Part shown: positions 28,982 through 53,536 of the stretch, piece after piece
Layout of the letters: each line of letters starts with the position of its first letter
How positions within the stretch are numbered: position 1 is the first letter of the stretch
NCBI GenBank assembly: GCA_004431415.1
Contig: QPMI01000095.1
Coordinates: 310,001 to 374,000 of the forward strand
DNA length: 64,000 bases
Direction of reading: 5' to 3'
Source: Cyanophora paradoxa CCMP329
Lineage: Eukaryota; Plantae; Glaucophyta
Notes under the pieces: generated by a model
Databases searched by the model: none
What the model was told of the DNA's origin: nothing
Seen by the model: the letters and a program-made list of their open reading frames with translations, nothing else
Program-made: the position numbers and the translations under genes

Positions 28982-31900
28982 CTAGGAGAGGACGACGGTG
29001 CGGGTGAGGATGGAGGGCGGTGCGAAGGAGGGGGCGTCGGAGGCGGCGGAGGGGCGGCGGGAGAGGGGCCCCGGGGCGCGGCAGGCGGCGCAGAAGTCGA
29101 AGGCGACCTCGAGCTCGCAGGTCACGGGGCGGTGGCCCGACGTCCGCACCCCGCCCACCGAGCGGTAGCGCAGCGGCACGATGCCCGGCCCCTGCTGCAC
29201 CCCCTCTGGCGCCTCCCGGAAGGCGTAGAGCACGCGGTCCGTCCAGGCGGGGGTACGCTGCAGTTCAGAAACACGTAGCACAGTCATTAAGATGAATGAT
29301 ACGAGCTGATGATGACCGCACCTGCTTGGGCCCGGTGTCGTAGAGATCGGCCTCGAGGTCGAGCTTGTAGTTGGGGGGGAAAGCGATGGGGGCCTCGTGG
29401 AAGGAGGGGAAGGCGCGGCCGGCGCGCATCTCGGCGAGCAGCTGGTCGGCCTCGAGGAGCGCGCCCAGCGAGCCCGGCCGCTCCAGCAGCGCCAGGGCCT
29501 CCGCCCGCGACACCCCCGCCAGCCGGTAGTTCAGGTCCCCCAGCCACACCACCCGCTCGAAGCGCTCCGAGGCGCCTGCGGCGACCGAGGGCGCCGCAGC
29601 GCGCCAGGCCTCCATGCCGCCGTCGGCAGGGGAGGGCGCTGAGGAGCGGGGCGGGCTCAGCAGCGGCGCCGAGGCGGTGCGGGAGGCGGCGGAGAGCGGG
29701 TGCGGCGCCGCGCTCGGCGGCGGCGTGGAGCGGGCGGCGTACAGGGGCCCCGAGGGGGCGGAGCCGAGCTGCGAGCCGGGGGAGACGGCGGGGGAGGCGG
29801 CGGGGGGTGACAGGCGCGGGCCGCTGTACGCCGGCTCCGAGGCGAGGGGCCGCAGGAAGGGCGAGGAGGAGGGGCGCGCCGGGGTGGGGAGGTCGGAGGG
29901 GCTCAGGAGGGGCGGGGCCGGGGGCGCAAAGGAGGCGGAGCGGGCCGGGGTGTAGGAGGCGGGGCGGGCGGGGGTGTAGGTGGCGGGGGCGCCGGTGAGG
30001 GAGGAGGGCGTCGAGGCGCGCGACGAGGAGGCCGAGGCCGGCGACGAGGGCGGCGCCGAGCTCGAGAGCGAGGGGGCCGGGACGAGGGCGCGCAGGAGGG
30101 CCCCCTCGGGGCCCCCGGAGGCGGCGGGGCAGGGCCGCGGGGCGAGGGAGAGGGCGGCGTTGATGCGGTGGAACATCTGCCGGCGGGGGCGCGTCAGACG
30201 GGGCGGCCCCGGTCTCGGGGGGCTAGGGCGGGCGGGCCTCGTTGCGGGGCTCCGGGGCGGGCCCCGAGGCGAGGTACGAGCAGACGAAGAGGAGGGAGGT
30301 GCAGCCGAGGGAGCAGGCGACGGCCACCGCGCCCTTGGTGCCCACGCCCCCGGGGCCCGTCGGCACCTTCGCCGTCTGCACGTTCGCCACGTGCGCCGCC
30401 AGCGGGCGCCGGGCGAAGAGCTGCGGGGGGCTGAGGGGGGCGGGGCGGGGGCGGCGGGGCGCGGGGCGCGGACGGCGATGTGGCAGGAGGGGAGGGCCTC
30501 GCGGGCGACGAGGCGGTAGCGGTCGGGCCCGAGCTCGGCGAGGAGGCGCTGCTCCCACTGCTCCGCCCCGGGGCCCGAGACCATCGCCCGCGAGATCGTC
30601 CGGTGGCACTGCTCGCTGCCCACCACCACGAGGTCCGCCTCCTGCTCGCCCCGTCCCGGCAGCAGCGCGGCGAGGCTGCCGGGGGGCGGGCGCCCCTGGA
30701 GGTTCCACGTGCAGGCGAAGAGGCGGAGGCGGCGGGTGGGGAGGAGGAAGGCGAGGTCCTCCGCCCCCTCCCCGCCCGCCCCGCAGGCCCGCGGCGTGGC
30801 CCCCGGCGTCGACGCGGCGCTCCCCGAGGCGGGGGCGGGGAAGGGGGGCGGGGCGGGGGCCGGGGGGCGGGGCCAGAGGCGGCGGCGGCGCTGGGCCTGG
30901 AGGGGCCCGGCGAGCCACTCGAGGCGCTCGCGGAGGACGTCGAAGGAGGCGCGCTTCGCCGGGCTCCGCTTCAGGCACTTCTTCATCAGGTCCCGCAGCA
31001 GGTCCGGGCACGAGGCCGGCACCTCCGGCTTCCGCCGCTCCGTCACGACCTGCCGCCCCGCTCGCCCCGCGCGCGGCCACGGGGCGGGGGGGCGGGGGCG
31101 GGCCTTGTGGGCGATGGCGAGGGGCTGCATGCCCTCCCAGGGGTGGGAGCCAGTGAGGAGGAAGCGGAGGATGCAGCCGAAGGACCAGACGTCGGCCGTC
31201 GCGCTGATCTGCGACTCCCCCGCCAGGATCTCGGGGCTGCTGTACGCGTCCCCGAAGGGCGTGAAGTCGGGCGTCCCCGAGACCCGCGTCTTGATCTCCT
31301 TGGAGATCCCGAAGTCGGCTATCTTGGGCGCGTGCTCCGCGTCCACCAGGATGTTCCGCGGGTTCTGCCCCCGCGCCTTGGCCCCGCGCGCCGCCGCTCG
31401 CGCGGGGGCGGGGTGGGGCGGGGCGCACGAGGTCCCTGTGGACGATCTGGGGCTTGCGGGCGTGCAGGTAGGCCATCCCCGAGGCGATCCCGTGCGCGAT
31501 CCGCACCACCTGCCGCCCCGCTCCAGCCCGCCCCGCCCCAGCGGCCCCCCAGCGGCGCGGGGCGCGCACCTCGGGGAGGTCGAGCGCCCCGCGCCGCTTC
31601 ACGTAGTCCGAGAGCGAGCCGTTCGCGGCCAGCTCCATGCAGAGCATGACCTCTCCCTGCGGGCCACAGCTCCAGCCCAGGAACCGCACGACATTCGAAT
31701 GCGCCAAGGTCCGTAGCATCGCCGCCTCGCGCGCCAGCATCGTTCTCTCCTCCTCAGCGTTCCGAGCAAGGCGCCCGTGCGAGCACTTGACGGCAACTGC
31801 GCGCTGCGCTCGCACGGCCGCTTCACAGCCGCTCACGGCCCAAGGGGACCGCACCGCTCTCTCCTCTGTACACACTGCGATAGATGAGCCCAAAGCCACC

Positions 31901-32205
31901 TGAGCCGATGATGTTCTTCGGGTCCAGGGCGAGCTCGCTGACGGGAATCACTGCGGTATGGAGAGTCAGCGGGGCGGGAGTCGTGTTCGCGGCAGCATGC
32001 AGCGCTTTATGGCCCCAGCGCACTAGCGCTAACGACATGAGGCCTCGCGCATGCGCCGTTATGCAGCGCAGGGGTTGGGGGGCAGTTTAACCGGCGCACT
32101 TTCCTGCTCCAGCAGCGCAGGATGAAGCAGTGGCGGCGCTGGCGGTCCTGCTGAACCGCCAATGCCCGAGCCGGCGGCGGCAGGCCCGCCGCTGCTGGAC
32201 GGCAT
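28982..32205 (-). CDS. TKL-type protein kinase fused to an inositol polyphosphate 5-phosphatase domain
   Basis: Kinase: IGSGGFG, VAVK, IVHRDL|NPRNIL, KIADFG, SPE, DVWSFG. Phosphatase in the same reading frame: CTWNLQG, GTKGAV, WLGDLNYR, DQL, FHEAPIAFPPNYK, RTPAWTDRVL, SGHRPV. Confidence 0.88.
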
Positions 32206-32375
32206 GGCCTGGCCGTCTACCCCCTCTCCCGCCCCTCCCCCCTCCCGGCAACCGGCTCTGCGTCTGCAGTAAACGTGACAGTAGAATCCGCTGCGAGCAG
32301 TTTGCAGTAAACGTGTGGACGTCGTTTCGAACAGTCTCGACAGCCAGGAATTCAAACCACCGCTACACGCACGCC

Positions 32376-33737
32376 ATGCTGAAGTACTTGCAGCGCGGCA
32401 TCAAGGAAAGCGATAAGGTGAAGGACGTCAAGAGCAGCGATGCGAAAAGCGAGCCAAAGACGAGGTCCGACTTGCGACGGCTGATCCTGCGGTCACCCGC
32501 ATGGCGGGGGCGCTCCGCGGAGCTGCTTGGCGGTGCGATACATGTGCGGTGGCTTCAGCGTGCCTTTCGTTTCGTAACGCGTTGCGCAGGCGCTCGCTGG
32601 TTGCCGGACCTCACAACAAAGGAGCTCGTTGAAGTTGCCAAGCTGCTGGACATCGCTGTGCCGGCCGGATTCCTCAAAGCCGCGGGCAAGTCATCCGCGC
32701 GCGGAAGCGTGCGCGCGCTCAAGCGCGCGCCGCGCAGAGACGAAGACGTCGACCGGCAAGAAGGACGGTGGCGCGAAAGGCGGGAAGGCTGCCGCGGGCA
32801 ATGCGGGCAGCTCCAAAGGAGCCGTCAGCTCCAAAGCAGCCGCGGGCAGCTCCAAGGCTGGCGCAAGCAGCTCGAAGCAAACGAAAGAGCCGGCCAAGTC
32901 CGCGGGAGAGTCGAGCAAGGCCGCGGGAGGGAAGCGGAAGGCAGGGCGCCTAGCCCCTGGAACATACTGTGCGCGCCTCCGGCTGCCCGCTGTTGCTTGA
33001 CTGCGGAATAACAACATGGATCGACCGTAGGCATCGGCGGGTGCGGCCCCGAAAACAACTTCAGCAACGCCTTCGTGTACAAGATTCTTGACGTCTACAA
33101 GGAGACGGCCGAGGACGGGTCTGTCGAGGAGGTAGCGAAGTGCCTCTGGTTCCGAGTGCGCTCACGTCGTCGCCACATCGCCCCGGCCGCTCGCCGAGGG
33201 GGGTACGGTGCAGGAGCAGCAGGTGGAGGCAACGAAGGGGGAGGAGGGGACGCCGAGCAAGCGGAAAGGCAAGCGGAGCGGGAACGAGGAGGGGGACGAG
33301 GAGGACGAGGGGGCGTCGAACGACGTGGAGGGGACGCCCTCGAAGAAGGGCAAGGCGCGGACACGGACCCTCTTCGTCGGTGCGGCCGCCCCGCCCCGCC
33401 CCGCCCCGCCCCCGCCCGACGCCGGCGCGCAGCGGATCCCGAGACGCAAGTGGAGTGCCTGGACGCCCTCACGGAGATGGACGGAGTGCGAGAAGGTGAG
33501 GGCGCGCCCCCGGGAAGGGGTCCCGGCGGAGCCGGCGCCTAGCGGCGCGCAGGGGTGGACGAGGCGACGGGCCTGCCCGTGGCGCAGTTCAGCCGCAAGG
33601 CCTTCTACGAGCTCCTAAAGAATCTCAAGTCGAAGGTGCCGCCCCGCCTCCGCCCTCTCTCCGCGCCGCGGCGCACCGCAAACCCTCGAGCCCCCGCCCC
33701 GCAGCACGCCGCCCACCAGAAGAAGCAGAAGAGCTGA
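32376..33737 (+). CDS. Hypothetical K/S/G-rich, probably nuclear protein (multi-exon)
   Basis: Exons MLKYLQRGIKESDK..., WLPDLTTKELVEVAKLL, a GSSK-repeat linker, FVYKILDVYKE...AKCLWF, KRKGKR, FSRKAFYELLKNLKSK|HAAHQKKQKS*. No family recognised. Confidence 0.55.
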
Positions 33738-33937
33738 GGGCTCGTCTTCAAGCTTATCGTGTGAGGTCGATCCACCAGCTCTGTTCCCCGCCCCCCTGTC
33801 GCATTCGCCTTGCGTGTATCTCGCAGCACCAGTACGCTACATACCCTCGCGGGCGCCACGTGCACGCGGCTGGGCGCCCCCGTGCGGGTAGGCAGCCGGG
33901 CGGGCGGGAGCGCGCGATTGTAGATCCAGCAGACAAT

Positions 33938-42422: not shown

Positions 42423-44300
42423 ATGGGCGACGCGTCCGAGCAGGACCAGCAGCTCGTGCGTTCGCACTACGATCAGCGGAAGAGCCTGGGGATTGCAGGC
42501 CGCGAAGAGAGCCGCACTTTCAAGGTGCGGACGCTGCACAACTGGATCAAGGTGCGCCACCGCGCCCCGCGCCCCGATCTCGTTCTGCGTCTCGTTCTGC
42601 GTACGCGTCGTTCTGATCTCGTCTCTAGTTCGCGCTCATCGAGTTCGATGAGCACGCGCGGCGCCGCTCACGGCCCGTCGTGCTCGACCTGTGCTGCGGG
42701 AAAGGCGGGGACCTGAACAAGTTCGCGCGGGTGCGGGCGCGCGGGGTCGTCTGCGTGGACTGGGCGAGGAAGAGCGTCGAGGAGGCGGTACGGCGCTGGG
42801 GCTCGATGCGAGAGCGGTTTCCCGTCGAGTTCTACTGCGCGGACTGCTTCGAGGTTGACCTGGGGGCCCATCTGCACGCCGACCTCCGCTTCGACCTCTG
42901 CTCGTGCCAGTTCTCGCACGCCCCGCCCCCCTCCCCCGCACCGCTCCCGCGCGGCCCGACGCGGCGGCAGCGCGCACTACGCCTTCGCGTCGGAGGGGCG
43001 GGCCCGGGCGATGCTCCGCAACGTGAGCTCGCGGCTCGTCCCCGGCGGCGCCGCCGTCCTCACCCTCCCGGACGCCGACGAGCTCGCGTGCGGCGGCCCG
43101 CCCCGCGCGGCGGCCCGCCGCGCCGACGCGGGCGGCGCAGGCGGCGGCTGAGGGCGAGCGGCGGGGACGGGTTTGGGAACGGGTTCTACCGGGTGCGCTT
43201 CGACGCGGGGAGCGCGGGGCGGGCGCGGGCATGGAGCTCGAGGAGGGGCCCCCGAGCCCGCCGAGCCCTCGGCGTCCGCTACGAGGTGCGCCGGCGCCCC
43301 GCGGGCCGGCGGGGCGCCGAGGGTCCACGCGGGGCGCAGTTCTACCTGGAGGACAGCGTGGGGGAGGCGGCCGGCCCCGGCGCCCTCGAGCTCGTCCCCG
43401 AGTTCCTCGCCCCGCTCGCCACCCTCCGCCGGCCCGCCCCAGCCCCGCCCCCGCCCCGCCCGCACGCCCGCCCGCTTGCCGACGCCCCGCAGCCTCGCAG
43501 CGGAGGCGGGCCTGGAGCTGGTCTTCGCCCGCAACTTCCGGCGTTCGCGGAGGAGCTGGGGCGGGACGGGCGCAGGTGGCGGCGCTGCGGCGGATGCTGG
43601 GGGGTGCGCGGGGCACCCCCTCGAGGCCCTCTCCCCCGACGAGTGGGAGGTCTCCTGTGCGCCGCCCGGCCCCGCATGCGCGCGCGGCGCTGACGCGCGG
43701 CCGGCAGCGCTCTACGCCGCCGTCGCGTTCCGCAAGGCCGCCGCCGCCCCGGGGGCCGGCCCCAGCCGCAAGCGCGACCGCGACGAGGAGCGCGACGCGC
43801 GGCAGCAGGGCCACCACCCGCGCCGCGAGGGCGACCCCGGAGGGCCCTACGACGACCGCGGGGACAACGCATACTCGCGGCAATCGGACAGCGGCTACAG
43901 CGATCGTAGAGGGGGGTACAATGACCGGTGGCGTGGCTACGACGATCGGCGAGGCGGCAGTGGCGACCAGCGAGGGAGGTACGACGAATGGAGAGGAGGG
44001 TACGATGACCGGCGAGGAGGGGGATACGATGGTTCGCGAGGCGGGTACGACGATCGAAGACGAGGACACGATGGTCGGAGGGCAGGACACGATGACTGGC
44101 GAGGGGGGTACGACGACCGGAGAGGCGGCTACGAACGAGGTGGTTCTGACGAGCGGAGAATGGGGTACGACGGTCGGAGAGGCTATGACGACGGGGGAGG
44201 GTTCGGTGATCGGCGAGGGGCGCGGGAGGCGGGGGAGCGGGCTTGCCCCATCGTGCTCGTGCCCGGCTTCTCCGCCTCCGACATCCGCTCCCTCCCGTAG
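42423..44300 (+). CDS. RNMT: mRNA cap guanine-N7 methyltransferase with C-terminal RG/YDD repeat tail
   Basis: VRSHYD, RTLHNWIK, VLDLCCGKGGDLNK, ADCF, FDLCSCQFS..HYAFASE, LVPGG..LTLPDA, FGNGFYRVRF, FYLEDSV, VPEFL, LSPDEWE, LYAAVAFRK. Confidence 0.92.
43890..44220 (+). repeat. Coding tandem repeat (~21-nt unit, consensus GGYDDRR) in the RNMT C-terminal tail
   Basis: SGYSDRR GGYNDRW RGYDDRR GGSGDQR GRYDEWR GGYDDRR GGGYDGSR GGYDDRR RGHDGRR AGHDDWR GGYDDRR... Confidence 0.9.
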
Positions 44301-46654: not shown

Positions 46655-49600
46655 ATGCTGGGCCTCACGCCGCTGGGCGCGCTCCGGCGTGCAACGGAAG
46701 AGATGCGCTCGATTGGTGCGTCCATTTTGAGCACTCCTCGCGCTGCCCCCTACGCCGCTCGCAAGCGACGACGAAACGAGCGCTCTCGCAGCGCGCCTCG
46801 CGCGGCCTCTGTCGTACAAAGGGCGTCGTCTTGATCTCGTGCAGCCCGACGAAGCCGCTCCTCCTCCGGACGCCGAGTTCCTCGGCTCGACCAAGGGGAC
46901 GACGATCATCCCTCCCAGGCGCAGCCAGAGGCCCAAGGTGTTCAAGCGCGATCACGAAGAGTGGTGGAAACGCGCGATCCACCGGCAGCGCGCTCGCGAG
47001 GGCGTCTCGCGCTACCAGGACCGACATCCAGCGCTCCCGTTCAACCCTCGCGAGCTGCCGCCGTCACCCTGGGCCGTCTCGCACCCAGCGAGCATCGGGA
47101 TTGGGCGCGGCAGGCGTACGTACGCTGTCGCAGCCGGGAGCCAGGCGTTTCGGCGGCCGCGCCGGCTGTCAGCGAACCGGGATTGGGACGCGGACGAGGA
47201 CGACGAAGACGAGGAGGACGAGGAGAGGATCGACACGCCAACTGCGAGGCGCTCCGCCCGCATCCAGCCAAAGCGCAGCCCGGAGAGGCCAGCGGCGCGC
47301 GCCAAGAAGTCGGCTTTCCGAGGGCGCGGCCGTGTGCGGGATCTGCGGGAGGAGGAGGAGGACGAGGACGAGGACGAGGACAACGAGAACACGTACGACG
47401 GGCTGGCCATCCGGGACGCGCGCGTCTCGTCGTGGCAGGAGGAGCGGGACGAGGAGTTCGACGTGCGCCGCCCGCCCCGCGCGCCGCCCCGCCGGCCTCA
47501 CGCGGCGCGCAGGAGGAGCTGTGGCAGCACGTGAAGGCCCGGCAGATGGGCCTCCCCGCGAAGGAGATGCCCGGCACCTCACGGCTGCGGGGCGCCGAGC
47601 GCAAGGCGCTCAAGACGATTGCGCCGGGGCCGCCCTCGGTCAAGCAGCTCCGGGAGGAGCGCGACAAGCTCGAGCGCCGGCAGCGCCGCGCCGAGCGCGC
47701 CGGCTCCGATCGCGAGGCGGACGAGGCGGCAGCGGGGCGGGGGAGGCGGCGGGCGGCGCGGCGCCCGCAGCGGAGGAGGGGCGGGAGGGAGGCCGCTGGT
47801 GGAGCTCATCGGGCGGTGGCAGGGCAAAGTCGAGGCCGCCGTGCGGGCTCGCGACGCCGAGCGCTTCTCGGCCCTCATCAAGGTCCGCGGCGCGGCGGCG
47901 CGGCCGGGCGGCGCGGCCGGGCGGCGGGGCGGCGGGGCGTGAGCGGGGGCGTGAGCGGGGCGTGAGCGGGGGCGGCAGGGTGTGGAGGTGGAGGACGCGG
48001 TGCCGGCGGTGTTCGTGTGCAACGCGGCGATGCACGCCCTCGCCGAGGCCGGAGAGCCGGCCGCCGTCGACGCCCTCCTCGACCTCATGCTCCAGGCCCG
48101 CCCGCCCCGCCCGCACCCGCCCCGCCCCGCCGCCGGCCGCCTGAGGGGGCCCAGGAGCGCGTCTTCCCCGACTCGGTGACGCTGGCGGTGTACGTGCGGG
48201 GCTCGGAGGCGGCGGCCCCCGCGGAGGCCCTCCCGGGGGAGTCCCTCGCCCTCCTCCAGGCCCCCGCCCCGCCAAGCCGCCCGGGCCCGCCGCCCGCGCC
48301 GAGCGCGCGAGCCACGTTCTGCGCCCCGACGGGCCCCACGCCCGCGTCGCCGCCGTCTTCGAGCGCTTCCGGCGCCTCGCCGCGCGCCCCACCATCGAGG
48401 CCGTCACCGTGCGACCGCCGCTGCCCCGCCCCGCGCCGTTGGGGCAAGCGGGGCGGGGCGGCAGGCGGTGGTGCAGCGGTACGCGGCGGCGGGGCGCCCC
48501 GGGGCGGAGATCCTGGCCCTCTTCCGAGCCCTCCGCGCCCGGCGCGCCGGCGCGCTCCTCCTCGCCGCCGGCCCCGCTGAGGCTGCGCAGGTACAATATC
48601 GCGTGCGACCCGCCGGCGTACACGGCCCTCATCAAGGCCGTCTGCTTCCCGCCCCGCCGCCCCGCCCCGGCCCAGGGCGCCTCGGGCGCGAAGGCCAAGG
48701 CCGAGAAGGCGGTGGGGGCGGTGGGGGGCCCGCTGCTGGCGATGGCCCTCCTGCGAGAGATGAATCGGCAGAAGGGCGCCGCAGACGCCCTTCTCTACAC
48801 CACCGTCGGCCCGCCCCCGCCCCGCCCCCGTCCCGCCCCCGTCCCCGCCCTGCCGCTGACGGGCGGCGGGGGCAGTTTCGGCGCTGTGCAAGCGGGGCGC
48901 CGTGGGGGCGGCCACGGCGGCCTTCGAGGAGGGCCTCTCCTTCGGCTGCCGCTTCGACACCCGTGCGCGCGCCGGGCGCGCCGGGGCGGGGCGGGGCGCG
49001 GAGGCGCGGCTGAGGGAGCGCAGTGGCGTGGAACGTGGTGATGTTCGGGCTCTGCGTGCGCGGCCGCACCCCCGACGCCGAGAACTGGCTCTCCCGCATG
49101 CACGCCGAGTGCGGCCCCCGCCCCGCCCCGCCCCCGCCCTCCGGCCCCCGCCCCGCCCCCGGCCCCGCCCCGCCTCCGCCCCCGCGCCCCCGCCCCCGCC
49201 CCCGCCCCCGCGCCCCGCCCGCGCCCCCGCCCGTGCGCCCTCTGAGGCCGGGGCAGGGGCGCGGACCCGGACGCGTTCACGTACGCGTGCCTGGCGCGGA
49301 GCTACGCGAAGGAGGGGCGCCGGGAGGAGGGGCGCCGGGTGCTCGAGCTGGCGGCCCGGGAGGGGGTGATGCCGGCCGGCGTCTCCCTCGAGTGGGTGGA
49401 GAGCTACGCCGGCTTCGGCGAGATCCGCGAGATCAGCGCCCGCCAGGCCGCCCAGGCCCGGCCCCGCCACGGCTCTCGCCCCTGGCTCAACGACCCCCGC
49501 CGCGACCCCCTCGAGCAGCAGACCGCCGCCCCGAAGCCGGCCGCTGCGCGCACTCGGGACCTCCCCAGCCCGCGCCGCGGGCGCTCCCGCACCACCAGCC

Positions 49601-49671
49601 CTCGCCGCGGGAGCCGCCCCGCCGCCCGCGCCCGCGGCTCGAGCACGAGCGCACGAGCCCTGCTTAAGTGA
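46655..49671 (+). CDS. Pentatricopeptide-repeat (PPR) protein, probably organelle-targeted
   Basis: PPR-like units: PAVFVCNAAMHALAEAG...M, PDSVT, DPPAYTALIKA, DALLYTT, VAWNVVMFGLCVRG...M, PDAFTYACLARSYAKEG. Leu/Arg-rich leader MLGLTPLGALRR. Confidence 0.75.
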
Positions 49672-50275
49672 TCGCTCCCCGGGCCCGGACGCGTACATTG
49701 CGGAATACATACGATATATCATAGTATCCGATGCAGGGAGATAAGCTTAAGAATTACGATTACGATAAGCCGGGTGGGCTCGGGAGTCGACGAGGCCCGG
49801 CGCGCGGCTGCCCCCGGAGGATCCCCAGCAGCAGCCGCAGTAGGTTAGGGTAGCCTTTAATTTAGTATTCTTCTTCATCGCGTAGGCCGCCTTCCAAGGA
49901 TAGGCCTCGCAGACGGGGGTAGCTGGGTTAGCGCCTCGTTTTTCGAGGCTGGCACTGCTCTACTATCCCCCTGAGGGCCCGGCATCCCCCGGGTACCAGC
50001 ACGTAGCGTGTGGTCGTGTAGCTACCGTGTGAAGAGCATAGTATTGCCGTCGGCGTTCGTCGCTCGGATTCGCTGAATTTCGCTCCCACTGGGGGATACC
50101 GCATTAGTGCTTGCCGGAGGCTACCTCGAACTCGCTCCCCGACAGCTGCAGCTGGGCAGGACAAGCGCCCGCACCATTCGCGCCGAAGGCAGTACACAGC
50201 CGCCTGACCATCAGCACACAAGGCCGATCAGAGCAGCTCTCAATCGATGACCACCGGCTGCTGACCAGAGAAGAG

Positions 50276-52955
50276 ATGACTACAATAATTTTCAAGACTT
50301 CTTGTGGGGAAACCAAGCCAGGTCAAGGAGTGTTCCTGGTCGGAAGCTGCAAAGAACTCGGTTCGTCGCGCGCAGGGCGATCCTTGGCGCATTCGTGAGC
50401 TAGTAGTACATACTCAGTCCCTGGAACATAACACGCCTGGCGCGCATCTTTGGCCACAGGAGACGCTGAGTTTCTCTGCTGCAGGTGCCTGGAATGTTGT
50501 TAACGGACTTAAACTCTCTACTTCTGCTGCCAGGTGCGTCGCTTTCGTCCAGAAACTCGCCCGCGCGCACGTGCCTAATCCGCGCGCGGCAGCTTTCCGG
50601 AGTGGCGCGGATCCGTCTCTTTGGCCTCCTCTGGAACGCAAATAGAGTATAAGGTCGTTATCGCGGACGAATCTGGGAAGAATCCGCGCTGGGAAGATGG
50701 GAAGAACAGGTCGTTGAAGCTGCAGCCCAGCGATGTATCCGTGGCCGTCGCCTTAACTTGGAGCAAGCCCGGTGGTGAGCTTTCTTTTTCTATTCTTGCT
50801 TTCATTGCTTTTATAACGGGGCCACAGAGTCCCTCGAAGTTGCTTCAAGTGCTCCTTCCACACCAGCACCAACGCCAACACTGGCACCCCAGCCGGCGCG
50901 GCCGGCGCCCGTCGCGCATTTAGCGCCAGCGGCTTTGCCTCCCGTTGCTGCGGCCCACGCCCTCGCCGGCAACTCGAAGGCGTTCAGTCCACAGCTAGGG
51001 AGTCCGATCGGCTCGCCGATGGCGTTCTCGCCGATCGGCTCGGCGCACCCATCGGGGAGCCCCTCGGGGCTCGCCGGTCTCCTCCCTCTCTCCACTTCCT
51101 TCTCGCCGATCGTGATCGCGTCGTCGCCGTCGCCCCCTGCGGCGCTGTCGACATCGCTGCCGCCGCGGCCCCGCGGCCCGCCGGCCTCCTTCCACGAGGA
51201 GGAGCAGGCGGCAGCGCCGCGCCTTCTCGGCCTCTCGATCGGGTCCCCCGTGCCGCTCAACGTCGCGCCGGGCGCCGGCTCGGCGCACAACTCGCCGCGC
51301 GCCCTCTCGAGCTCCTCGAGCTCGGCCGGCTCGGGGCCCAGCACGCCCACCAAGGTGATGCACCGGTCGGGCCCCCCGTCGGCGCCGCGGCCGATCCCGA
51401 CGAAGCCGCCCGTCTACCACGGGCCCCACGGGCCACACCACCACGAGTCGCCCCTCACCGTCCAGATCCCCTCGCCGACGCAGAAGCCGGCGCCGGGCTC
51501 GAACCCGACGAGCCCGGCGGGGATGCTGCGGAGCCCCGTGCTCTCCCCGGGGACCCCCGGCTCGCTGCCGTCGGCGGTGCGGGTGGAGCTGGGCGTCCCC
51601 AAGGTGGAGGGCGAGGAGGCGCGGGGCCTGGAGCTCGGCCAGGTGCTGGGGCGCTCGGCGTTCGGGGCGATCCACCAGTGCACGGAGACGGCGACGGACC
51701 GCACGCTCGCCATCGCCCGCATCCCCCGCCACATCCTCTACCGCGCCCCGGCCCGCATGAAGGCCCGCCCGCCCGCCCCCCCCGCCCGCTCCCGCCCCCC
51801 CGCGCCGCGCCGCGCTGACGCGGGGGCAGACGCTGGTGGAGGTGGTCGAGCGGGTGCGCAAGGGGCAGCAGGAGCGGGGTCCCACGGGGCGCCACGTCGT
51901 CGCCCACCGCGACACCTTCGAGACCCCCGTGCGCCCGCCCCGCCCCGCCCCGCCGGCCGCCGCGGGGCGGGGTCCGACGGGGCGGGCAGCTCTCGCTGTG
52001 CTACACGATGGAGCTGGTGACGGGGGGGAAGCTGTTCGACCGGATGGTGATGAACGGGGCGTACAGCGAGAAGGACGCGGCGGCGTGCATGCTGCAGGTC
52101 GCCGCCGGCCTCGCCTTCCTCCACTCGTGCGGCGTCGTGCACAGCGAGCTCAAGCCCGAGAACCTCATGTACGAGGGGCCGGACGCCGACAGCGCCCTCG
52201 TGATCATCGGGCTGGAGCAGGGCCACCTCGTCGGCGAGACCGACCGGGAGGCGGCGCAGCGGGCGGCGCCCGAGTACCTGGCCCCCGAGGTGCTCGCGCA
52301 GGGGGACGAGTACCGCTACGACCCGGCCGCCGACGTCTGGTCCTTCGGCGTCATCCTCTACGTGCTCCTCTGCGGCTACTTCCCCTTCTTCGGGGCGACC
52401 CCCGAGGAGGTCTTCCGCCGCGCCCTCGAGGCGCCCCTCGACCTCGAGCGCCGCGAGTGGGCCGCCGTCTCCGAGGCGGCCAAGCGCCTCCTGCGGCGCC
52501 TGCTCGACAAGGACCCCGCCGCCCGCCCCCGCGCCGAGGAGCTCCTCGCCGACCCCTGGATGCGGGGCGAGGTCTGCGCGGAGGCGCCGCTCGCCCCCAA
52601 GGTCGTCTCCAACCTCGCCGCCTTCACCGCCCGCCGCCGCTTCAAGGCCAGCGTCCTCGCCGCCGTCGCAATGGGCCGCCTCAAGGCCGCCGGCGCCTCC
52701 CCCTCGGCCTCGCCCCGCGCCTCGCCCGTGCCGGGGGCCCACGCCGGCGGCCAGGAGAGCGGGCGGGCGAGCCCGACGGGGGCGGCGATGAAGGACCCGC
52801 GGCTGGCGGCGGTGCTCGCGGACCCGCACGTGCACTCGGCGCTGCGCGACCCCGACCTGGCGGCGCGGCAGACGGCCGCCGCGGAGCACGCCTGCGGGGC
52901 CCCCGAGCGGCCCCTCCACCTCCACCACGCCCTCGCCCGCCTCCAGGCCGCCTGA
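50276..52955 (+). CDS. CBM20 starch-binding domain + S/P-rich linker + CaMK-like pseudokinase
   Basis: CBM20: TKPGQGVFLVGSCKELG|AWN, FPEW, IEYKVV, RWEDGKNR. Kinase fold: LGRSAFG, MELVTGGKLFDR, HSELKPENL, PEYLAPEVL, DVWSFGVILYVLLCGYFPF. The spliced frame is continuous. Confidence 0.88.
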
Positions 52956-53536
52956 CAGCCCCGCCGCCCGCCCCCGCCGCCCCGCGGCGCCTCCTCCTCT
53001 TCGTCTCCCGTTTTCGCCGCTGTACCACGACTCCAATTTTGACCGGGCACCGCGTACTCTAGTAGACCTTCATTTCTGTTGTTTTCTGTATCGTGTATTT
53101 CATGGGTAGTAGGGGTAGGGGGGCATGGGTAGGGGTAGAGGGACTTGTTTGTTTGATGACGCAAGCCCTGCAAGAGGGACAGCAACGTTGTCTGTCCCCT
53201 TCCCGCGGAGCTCGCTCCCCGCGCGGGTCGCAATTTTCGGCTTCGGCTTTCAAATCGATGATTTCAGCTTGCTTTCTAAATTTCTCGGTATTGTAGAAAC
53301 GAGACCGGTGTGGCAGTGCCGCACGCAGCTTTTTTTATATTGCAGGACAATCCCGCTGCGCCGGCGTTGCGGTCGCAGTTGGGGCATCGATATTGGTCGC
53401 ACTTAGTGCACAGAGCAACGTAATTTACGATCTCCTATTCATTCAGCGGCTATCACAGTGTGTATTGCGACGAGTGTTCAAACTAAGACATTTCTGCAGG
53501 GCCTTTCCGGGGGCCGAGCGCGGGGGGCCGACCAGG

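Follow-up and report, generated by a model that had tools for sequence, protein, structure and literature searches.

What could a protein kinase with a starch-binding module do that has lost the residues of its catalytic centre? This question is raised by a gene of the glaucophyte Cyanophora paradoxa CCMP329, located at 50276..52955 (+ strand) of the 64,000-nt stretch of contig QPMI01000095.1 analysed here (positions 310,001 to 374,000; referred to as the window). Its product combines an N-terminal starch-binding domain (CBM20), a long linker, a CaMK-like kinase domain devoid of its key catalytic residues and a CaMKIV-like regulatory helix. From this arrangement it appears fairly probable that the protein acts as a catalytically dead adaptor on cytosolic starch granules, the docking surface of which would be opened by Ca2+/calmodulin.

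Little is known about the regulation of cytosolic starch in glaucophytes and red algae; to go by the available excerpt of a preprint (bioRxiv 10.64898/2026.09.25.754361), the starch metabolism of glaucophytes has been the subject of a single biochemical study. A connection of Ca2+ signalling with cytosolic starch is well studied only for CDPK2 of Toxoplasma, a kinase that needs its CBM20.

Gene structure and transcription

The first-pass annotation, made from the DNA letters, had placed the gene at 50276..52955, and these limits proved exact, with the start codon ATG at 50276-78 and the stop codon TGA at 52953-55. The genomic stretch between them is not one continuous open reading frame (ORF); instead, a model of six exons on the + strand was read from the sequence, encoding a product of 771 amino acids:

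50098..53062, + strand: whole transcript from intron-free contigs (5' untranslated region 50098-50275, coding sequence, 3' untranslated region 52956-53062)
50276-50360, + strand: exon 1, start codon and CBM20 residues 1-28; joint 50359/50484 (GT..AG) in runs X1, X4 and X8
50485-50533, + strand: exon 2, CBM20 residues 29-45, among them the Trp (W31) of 'LGxW'; joints supported by X1, X4 and X8
50593-50774, + strand: exon 3, CBM20 residues 45-105 with W49, K65, W78, E79 and N83
50828-51762, + strand: exon 4, contig-supported
51763..51829, + strand: intron 4, 67 nt, GC-AG, 94% G+C, ends GCCCGC...GGGCAG; joint 51760/51828 with two ambiguous letters in X1, X4 and X8
51830-51928, + strand: exon 5, contig-supported
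51990-52955, + strand: exon 6, contig-supported
50247..50264, + strand: upstream ORF of five codons (MTTGC-stop), 12 nt before the main start, read from the sequence

The sequence is present in 18 of 24 listed public runs of one organism (five named studies), none of which is recorded as RNA. Transcription is argued solely from intron-free contigs, and four runs were aligned to 50000-53300. A contig of run X1 (record 1, 2601 nt) extends from 50098 to 53062 with all six exons joined and no letter differing from the genome, and a contig of run X4, from a different study (record 12, 2457 nt), likewise joins the six exons from 50101 to 52921 without any difference. Joints 1, 2 and 4 were also seen in run X8 of a third study, and the fifth joint (51928/51990), which lies within a repeat, is visible as adjoining blocks of the same X1 and X4 contigs. 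The contig of run X13 is unspliced from 50030 to 51724, and X13 therefore represents genomic DNA. Since contigs of two studies have all six exons joined, CBM20 and kinase reside on one mRNA and not on separate transcripts. Since these contigs match the genome without differences, the unusual codons at the catalytic sites are present in the transcript as well, i.e., no letter restores the residues replaced at the VAIK Lys, HRD and DFG. The spliced translation is identical, letter for letter over its 771 amino acids, to the EukProt protein P0001 (tig00000383_g24712.t1).

Four of the introns are of the GT-AG type and one (51763-51829) is of the GC-AG type; a second contig-confirmed GC-AG intron is located in a neighbouring gene (32686-32737). 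Introns in the GC-rich part of the CBM20-pseudokinase gene measure 61-67 nt at 93-94% G+C. Three extra joints considered as isoforms (51328/52686, 52269/52799 and 52733/52978) have 18-22 letters on one side and were taken as chimeric GC-rich overlaps. The upstream and the main ORF share their first three residues (MTT).

Selective loss of catalytic residues

The region downstream of the linker was identified as a kinase domain by Pfam (Pkinase, residues 374-641, E 8.1e-42 in the full protein), with CaMK1D and CaMKIV as top sequence matches in the PDB (E 4e-51 to 1e-49). With an alignment of 99 sequences as input, AlphaFold2 gave a model whose predicted local distance difference test score (pLDDT) is mostly above 90 across the kinase domain and into the beginning of the helix behind it. 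Foldseek comparison of this model with the PDB retrieved CaMK1D, CaMKII, CaMKIV, CDPKs and the pseudokinase CASK, with template modelling (TM) scores of 0.86-0.90 to CaMKI/II and of 0.88 over 314 columns to autoinhibited CaMKII (2bdw). The CaMK-like fold proposed beforehand is thus found by PDB sequence matches and by Foldseek alike.

51628..52562, + strand: CaMKI/IV-like pseudokinase domain, residues 373-641, spanning introns 4 and 5 (Pfam, PDB, model)
51715..51717, + strand: codon of A402 in place of the beta3 (VAIK) Lys; K in 99/99 relatives, contigs identical with the genome
52140..52148, + strand: H501-S502-E503 at the HRD position, which reads HCD in the nearest glaucophyte relatives; D in 97/99, R or C in 94/99 relatives
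52209..52217, + strand: G524-L525-E526 in place of DFG; D in 99/99, F in 99/99 and G in 96/99 relatives

The comparison set behind these counts comprises 99 relatives with a whole catalytic domain, drawn from the best 150 of 1.84 billion representatives plus two earlier matches. The motifs are located at residues 399-403 (LAIAR), 501-503 (HSE), 522-526 (IIGLE), 548-550 (APE), 565-570 (DVWSFG) and 579-583 (GYFPF). Accordingly, the first-pass annotation was right in reading VAIK as changed to LAIAR and HRD as changed to HSE, and in regarding APE, DVWSFG and GYFPF as kept. In case of its third substitution, DFG to IIGLE, the loss of the Asp holds true, whereas the position has to be shifted: in the ungapped alignment DFG pairs with G524-L525-E526 and not with I-I-G. 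Further exchanges affect the alphaC Glu (E in 98/99 relatives, L419 here), the second Gly of the Gly-loop (G in 96/99, S382 here), and the activation loop, where a Gly (95/99) and a Thr/Ser (99/99) are both replaced by Ala.

Among the columns conserved in at least 90% of the 99 relatives, the Cyanophora protein keeps 29 of 37, including H501, K505, N508, APE, D565, W567, G570, R629 and W640. All eight changes fall within 11 ATP/Mg/catalytic columns (hypergeometric p 4e-6, for a column set chosen after the data were seen), of which the median relative changes one, and the 26 conserved non-catalytic columns are kept without exception. Judged from the aligned residues, this pattern is that of a pseudokinase with preserved fold and not of uniform decay. 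The term pseudokinase is applied here to domains that have lost at least one of the VAIK Lys, HRD Asp and DFG Asp; the Cyanophora protein is devoid of all three. With the alphaC Glu lost in addition, the kinase is likely to be catalytically dead.

CBM20 head and linker

The full protein contains a CBM20 according to Pfam (CBM_20, PF00686; residues 3-90, E 2.2e-20, 72.7 bits vs a cut-off of 23.3, profile positions 3-89 of 97), so that the search for CBM20 plus kinase recommended along with the first-pass annotation finds both on one protein. In single-exon searches the family was recognized with E 0.039 in exon 1 and E 3e-8 in exon 3, the latter also aligning with the PDB CBM20s of maltotetraohydrolase and STBD1 (PDB 8x8k).

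50282..50728, + strand: CBM20 domain, residues 3-90, split by introns 1 and 2 (Pfam PF00686)
50828..51627, + strand: Pro/Ser/Ala-rich linker, residues 106-372, 267 amino acids with 19 Ser/Thr-Pro sites (composition)

W31, W49, K65, W78, E79 and N83 are invariant in four kinase-linked CBM20s, and in a further set of 15 CBM20 copies each of them is conserved in 12-15. The W31/W49/K65/W78/N83-type residues are what we take to be the two Trp of binding site 1 with its Lys and Asn, and the Trp of site 2, as mapped for the glucoamylase of A. niger. In the AlphaFold2 model, beta strands of the CBM20 are placed at residues 37-40, 48-54, 61-69 and 94-100, at a pLDDT of only 37-53 (shallow alignment).

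No second ATG occurs in frame between the start codon and the preceding stop codon at 50105-07, close to the transcript start at 50098. Since, furthermore, the CBM20 starts as early as residue 3, a transit peptide is absent, as had been claimed. Glaucophyte starch is cytosolic, which the first-pass annotation had taken for granted and which is stated in the accessible part of bioRxiv 10.64898/2026.09.25.754361; together with the lack of an N-terminal extension, this makes a cytosolic location of the protein likely.

The long S/P-rich linker noticed at first sight indeed covers 267 residues (106-372) and consists of 21% Pro, 16% Ser and 13% Ala. It contains no Pfam family and is predicted to be disordered, with a pLDDT below 50 nearly throughout.

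Regulatory helix and C-terminus

The kinase domain is followed by a predicted helix, and by a short conserved motif near the C-terminus:

52596..52694, + strand: predicted regulatory helix, residues 653-685, holding a CaMKIV-like autoinhibitory/calmodulin-binding segment at 658-681 (model, alignments)
52839..52889, + strand: C-terminal motif ALRDPDLAARQTAAAEH (residues 734-750), degenerate relative to the clade-specific (R/K)xQ(T/A)SLG (aligned with P0134, P0133 and P0161)

The tail named in the first-pass annotation, NLAAFTARRRFKASVLAAVAMGRL, occupies residues 658-681. In the phmmer alignment, 13 of its 24 residues are identical to the autoinhibitory/calmodulin-binding region of CaMKIV (counted by hand), an identity share exceeding that of the catalytic domain, and 16 of 24 are identical to the catalytically intact CaMK P0134 of Gloeochaete. 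The helix carries a net charge of +4 to +6 per 18-residue window, with the bulky hydrophobics F668 and L681 fourteen apart. Calmodulin binding by this helix is a prediction from homology. The tail had been described as CaMK/CCaMK-like; this applies to the CaMKIV-like helix and does not extend to a CCaMK-like region beyond it, since Pfam detects no visinin/EF-hand domain (no EF-hand family in the full protein at E up to 1). What follows the helix is low-complexity sequence.

The (R/K)xQ(T/A)SLG-type motif is found in P0139 as well. An alternative assignment of MKDPRLAAVLADPHVH to the STI1/HOP DP domain was rejected: exon 6 alone scores 13 bits vs a cut-off of 29.1 (E 0.098), the domain is absent from the Pfam report of the full protein, and the alignment displays the clade-specific C-terminal motif instead. 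For residues 700-771, the Atlas search gave no usable match.

Glaucophyte relatives and phylogeny

Paralogues were sought through protein databases only. The closest kinase domains are those of glaucophytes, i.e., Cyanophora P0133, Gloeochaete wittrockiana P0134/P0271, P0139 and P0164/P0273, as well as P0161/P0272, an unlabelled MMETSP record. Kinase domains of this clade are 37-41% identical to that of the Cyanophora pseudokinase, and the regulatory helix NLxAFNARRRF(K/R)KGxxAAxA and the C-terminal (R/K)xQ(T/A)SLG region are common to both; in contrast to the pseudokinase, they keep Lys, DFG and a catalytic loop of the non-RD type 'HCD', and are therefore predicted to be active. Their N-terminal heads differ: P0133 and P0273 carry a PH domain and P0139 a coiled coil with long linker, the remaining members lack such a head, and CBM20 occurs in none of them. 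From these alignments the clade looks like a single kinase plus regulatory-helix cassette with exchangeable targeting heads, within which the pseudokinase looks like the member with the starch-binding head and the only one without catalysis.

A quick maximum-likelihood tree of 103 rows places the protein as sister to the glaucophyte CaMK clade with weak support (Shimodaira-Hasegawa-like approximate likelihood ratio test 81). In the approximately unbiased test, a clade of the protein with the CBM20-CDPKs of alveolates is not rejected (p 0.555), and the constrained tree exceeds the quick free one by 3.8 log-likelihood units. The tree of 36 CBM20 copies is a polytomy. The CBM20 of the Cyanophora protein scores best against that of Chromera velia (60.8 bits), and the regulatory helix and C-terminus tie the protein to glaucophyte CaMKs.

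Searching with a profile of four kinase-linked CBM20s yielded 19 proteins. Nine of them possess a kinase domain (the Cyanophora protein, Chromera, four Cryptosporidium CDPKs and three unnamed proteins), while the other ten are without kinase and carry PP2C, GWD/amylase, GH77, GDPD or LPMO parts, or nothing else. The Pfam scan of kinase relatives covered the 55 multi-stretch matches of the 150 best representatives and, of the single-stretch matches, P0133 and P0139. Three of these 55 combine CBM20 with a kinase, namely the partial Cvel_32861 of Chromera velia and two CBM20-CDPKs that possess four EF hands. A fourth carries CBM20 twelvefold and no kinase. A word-index search with CBM20 residues 1-105 at near lengths returned the Cyanophora protein only, and tblastn for tandem paralogues within the window retrieved only an unrelated kinase fragment (31122-31244).

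According to the part of one study that was available, CDPK-type kinases were not found in glaucophytes (PMC5482843), so that the decoding of Ca2+ signals in this group would be expected of calmodulin-dependent kinases.

Predicted function and alternatives

The adaptor function considered fairly probable at the outset starts from what is observed: a gene that is expressed and spliced as modelled, the order of its domains, catalytic residues that are selectively lost, and a kinase fold and helix that are kept. Through its CBM20 the protein would be attached to the surface of cytosolic starch granules, with the 267-residue linker supplying reach. At rest, the basic amphipathic helix would sit on the C-lobe, as in autoinhibited CaMKI/II, until binding of Ca2+/calmodulin lifts it off. 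The freed C-lobe or pseudo-substrate groove could then recruit or release clients at the granule, candidates being starch-metabolic enzymes or catalytically intact paralogous CaMKs. The outcome would be a Ca2+-dependent control of starch turnover without phosphotransfer by the pseudokinase itself. By analogy, precedents may be seen in the control of amylopectin by Toxoplasma CDPK2 via its CBM20 (as described in the available portions of PMC9254107 and PMC9691885) and in the pseudokinase scaffold CASK (title of PDB 9m5y).

Several observations weigh against the adaptor function. The gene has 75% G+C, where an open frame is weak evidence of selection, and the CBM20 part of the AlphaFold2 model, with few CBM20 sequences in the alignment, reaches a pLDDT of only 37-53. 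The enrichment of changes at catalytic columns refers to the column set defined in hindsight. The terminal branch of the protein is long (0.84 vs 0.19-0.53 for members of the glaucophyte clade), which also fits relaxed constraint. Among 120 listed long relatives of exon 6, CBM20 occurs only in the Cyanophora protein itself; none of the 19 CBM20 profile matches is from another glaucophyte; and a metagenome scan for kin of exon 6 gave 597 pattern matches and four confirmed loci of 28-33% identity, with no orthologue among them. Since no orthologue with the same architecture or substitutions was found, purifying selection on the dead state cannot be shown.

One alternative is a decaying paralogue, i.e., a lineage-specific duplicate of a glaucophyte CaMK that became fused to CBM20 exons and is now inactive and drifting while still being transcribed and spliced. 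Such a fate is regarded as unlikely. It would agree with the protein being the sole member of its kind found in database and metagenome searches, with the long terminal branch and odd amino-acid composition, with the degenerate C-terminal clade motif, and with a G+C content high enough to hold frames open by chance, as witnessed by many spurious long ORFs in the window. However, the changes are not random, with 8/8 at catalytic columns and 26/26 conserved non-catalytic columns kept, the residues of the CBM20 binding sites and the regulatory helix are intact, all five introns are correctly spliced in a transcript that assembles in runs of three studies, and the G+C content at third codon positions (GC3) of the kinase part (1.00) is as in long-resident coding sequence of this genome. 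Even more doubtful is an atypical yet active kinase with substitute residues, e.g., R403 beside A402, E503 as base and E526 for the metal. WNK and CASK work with displaced or missing catalytic residues, and CASK-type CaMK pseudokinases, for which residual activity is known, are among the structural matches; moreover, H501, K505, N508, APE and the whole C-lobe core are kept, the exchange of D to E503 is conservative, and the acidic E526 is located two positions after the lost DFG Asp. Against this stands the joint loss of the beta3 Lys, alphaC Glu, HRD Asp, DFG Asp, second Gly-loop Gly and activation-loop Gly-Thr; to our knowledge, no active kinase lacks all of these together. Nor is R403 special, since seven of the 99 active relatives have R at that column in addition to the Lys.

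A role independent of calmodulin was considered as well, in which the CBM20 binds soluble glucan or granules, the dead kinase docks constitutively or acts as a decoy, and the tail is no more than an intramolecular lid. The protein could then, e.g., withhold substrates or activators from its active paralogues, or serve as an STBD1-like receptor in granule turnover. Pseudokinases commonly regulate active paralogues, several tail positions depart from the clade consensus (16/24 identical), and STBD1, a non-enzymatic CBM20 cargo protein (PDB 8x8k), is among the sequence matches of exon 3. This role is nevertheless given little credence, since the tail segment is basic and amphipathic (net charge +4 to +6; F668 and L681 fourteen apart), has the look of CaMKI/IV-type calmodulin targets and is the best-conserved stretch outside the catalytic core.

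Beyond the adaptor function as such, one may speculate about its origin. A CAMK-group Ca2+ decoder tethered to granules via CBM20 might be an old control of cytosolic starch shared by glaucophytes and myzozoan alveolates, with the CBM20-kinase module of alveolate CDPK2 derived from archaeplastids. The Cyanophora version would then have become a Ca2+/calmodulin-gated, non-catalytic switch that brings active CaMK paralogues and starch enzymes to the granule surface or blocks them there. In this full form the scenario is rather unlikely.

Base composition and genomic surroundings

The G+C content of the window ranges from 66 to 86% in 2-kb steps. Within the coding sequence, a sharp compositional break separates 50276-50774 from 50828-52955, with GC3 values of 0.57 for the CBM20 codons, 0.87 for the linker, 1.00 for the kinase and 0.99 for the tail, and no low-G+C island of the window is larger than the one containing the three CBM20 exons (49701-50900). 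A single neighbouring gene could be modelled from RNA contigs; its GC3 is 0.84 in the first 50 codons, and a general dip at the 5' end is therefore not the obvious cause of the low value in the CBM20 part. The CBM20 exons may thus have been added to the gene recently, a lead taken from this single comparison gene.

No calmodulin or EF-hand gene was detected in the window by matches better than E 0.5. Other features of the window are as follows:

about 29265-32086, - strand: unrelated kinase gene with intact GxGxxG, AVK, HRD and DFG, and an apparent C-terminal fusion in which WNLQG and GDLNYR recall inositol-polyphosphate 5-phosphatase/EEP enzymes (raw ORF translations)
32375-33900, + strand: seven-exon gene from RNA contigs, encoding a Lys/Ser/Ala/Gly-rich protein of about 318 amino acids, GC3 0.76-0.94; 3' end of the model uncertain
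43226-43598, 44545, 44720 and 47771-47786: an extra single G at nine places in RNA-like contigs of two studies
49246-49671, + strand: upstream ORF in which AFTYACLARSYAKEGRREEGRRVLELAAREGV resembles, by eye, a pentatricopeptide-type helical repeat

The extra G letters suggest homopolymer indel errors of the assembly or allelic indels, and local gene models may be frameshifted.

Comparison with known systems

The nearest counterparts in architecture are the CBM20-CDPKs of alveolates (Chromera velia Cvel_32861, i.e., P0179; Cryptosporidium P0275-P0278; P0204, P0243 and P0279), which by their sequences are the family of Toxoplasma CDPK2 and active enzymes. According to the available portions of PMC9254107 and PMC9691885, the CBM20 of Toxoplasma CDPK2 mediates amylopectin binding and the control of starch stores, and loss of this kinase leads to massive amylopectin accumulation. 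Like the Cyanophora protein, P0179, P0204 and P0243 have an N-terminal CBM20 beginning within the first few residues, followed by a linker and a CAMK-group kinase, and C10, T13, P15-G16, W31, W49, K65, W78-E79 and N83-R84 are common to the CBM20s of both sides. In contrast, the alveolate enzymes keep K, HRD and DFG and possess four C-terminal EF hands, whereas the Cyanophora protein has none of these and bears a CaMKI/IV-type calmodulin-target helix in place of the EF hands; its linker is also longer (about 270 vs about 100 amino acids). Among two metagenome records (P0280, P0281), P0280 combines two CBM20 copies with a PP2C-type phosphatase domain, its CBM20 being 39% identical to that of the Cyanophora protein; starch-tethered phosphatases may accompany starch-tethered kinases in some protists.

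Among calmodulin-regulated kinases, CaMKI and CaMKIV of animals provide the best solved-structure matches by sequence and fold, and their autoinhibitory/calmodulin-binding segment aligns through residue 681. Unlike the Cyanophora protein, they are active enzymes that need phosphorylation of the activation loop, where it has Ala at the matching Gly-Thr positions, and they carry no carbohydrate-binding module. Plant CCaMK differs by the visinin-like EF-hand domain after the helix, which Pfam did not find in the Cyanophora protein. CASK still has the beta3 Lys and the catalytic Asp, along with weak activity. It resembles the Cyanophora protein in its CaMK fold, degraded metal-binding motif and use as a scaffold, and was solved with Ca2+/calmodulin (titles of PDB 9m5y and 7oai); its L27/PDZ/SH3/GuK modules, the lack of CBM20 and an identity of about 27% set it apart.

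With regard to non-enzymatic starch binding, STBD1 and the plant proteins PTST and LSF1 likewise join a carbohydrate-binding module to a protein-interaction part. PTST and LSF1 are non-catalytic starch-granule proteins using CBM48. All three differ from the Cyanophora protein in having neither a kinase fold nor a calmodulin-target helix.

In the full-text literature searched (subscription papers lying outside), no description of the Cyanophora protein or of any CBM20-linked pseudokinase was found. Its novelty is lowered by Toxoplasma CDPK2 as an already known active CBM20-CDPK: the EukProt gene model and the CBM20-CDPK architecture are known, the CBM20-linked pseudokinase version is new. The same idea of tethering would recur in a primary alga with two twists, since the kinase is likely dead and the Ca2+ input would use free calmodulin and not fused EF hands. 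If binding of starch and calmodulin holds true, the protein would provide a handle for the Ca2+-dependent machinery of the granule, a naturally occurring pseudokinase with a carbohydrate anchor, and a data point on a possible archaeplastid inheritance of alveolate starch regulation.

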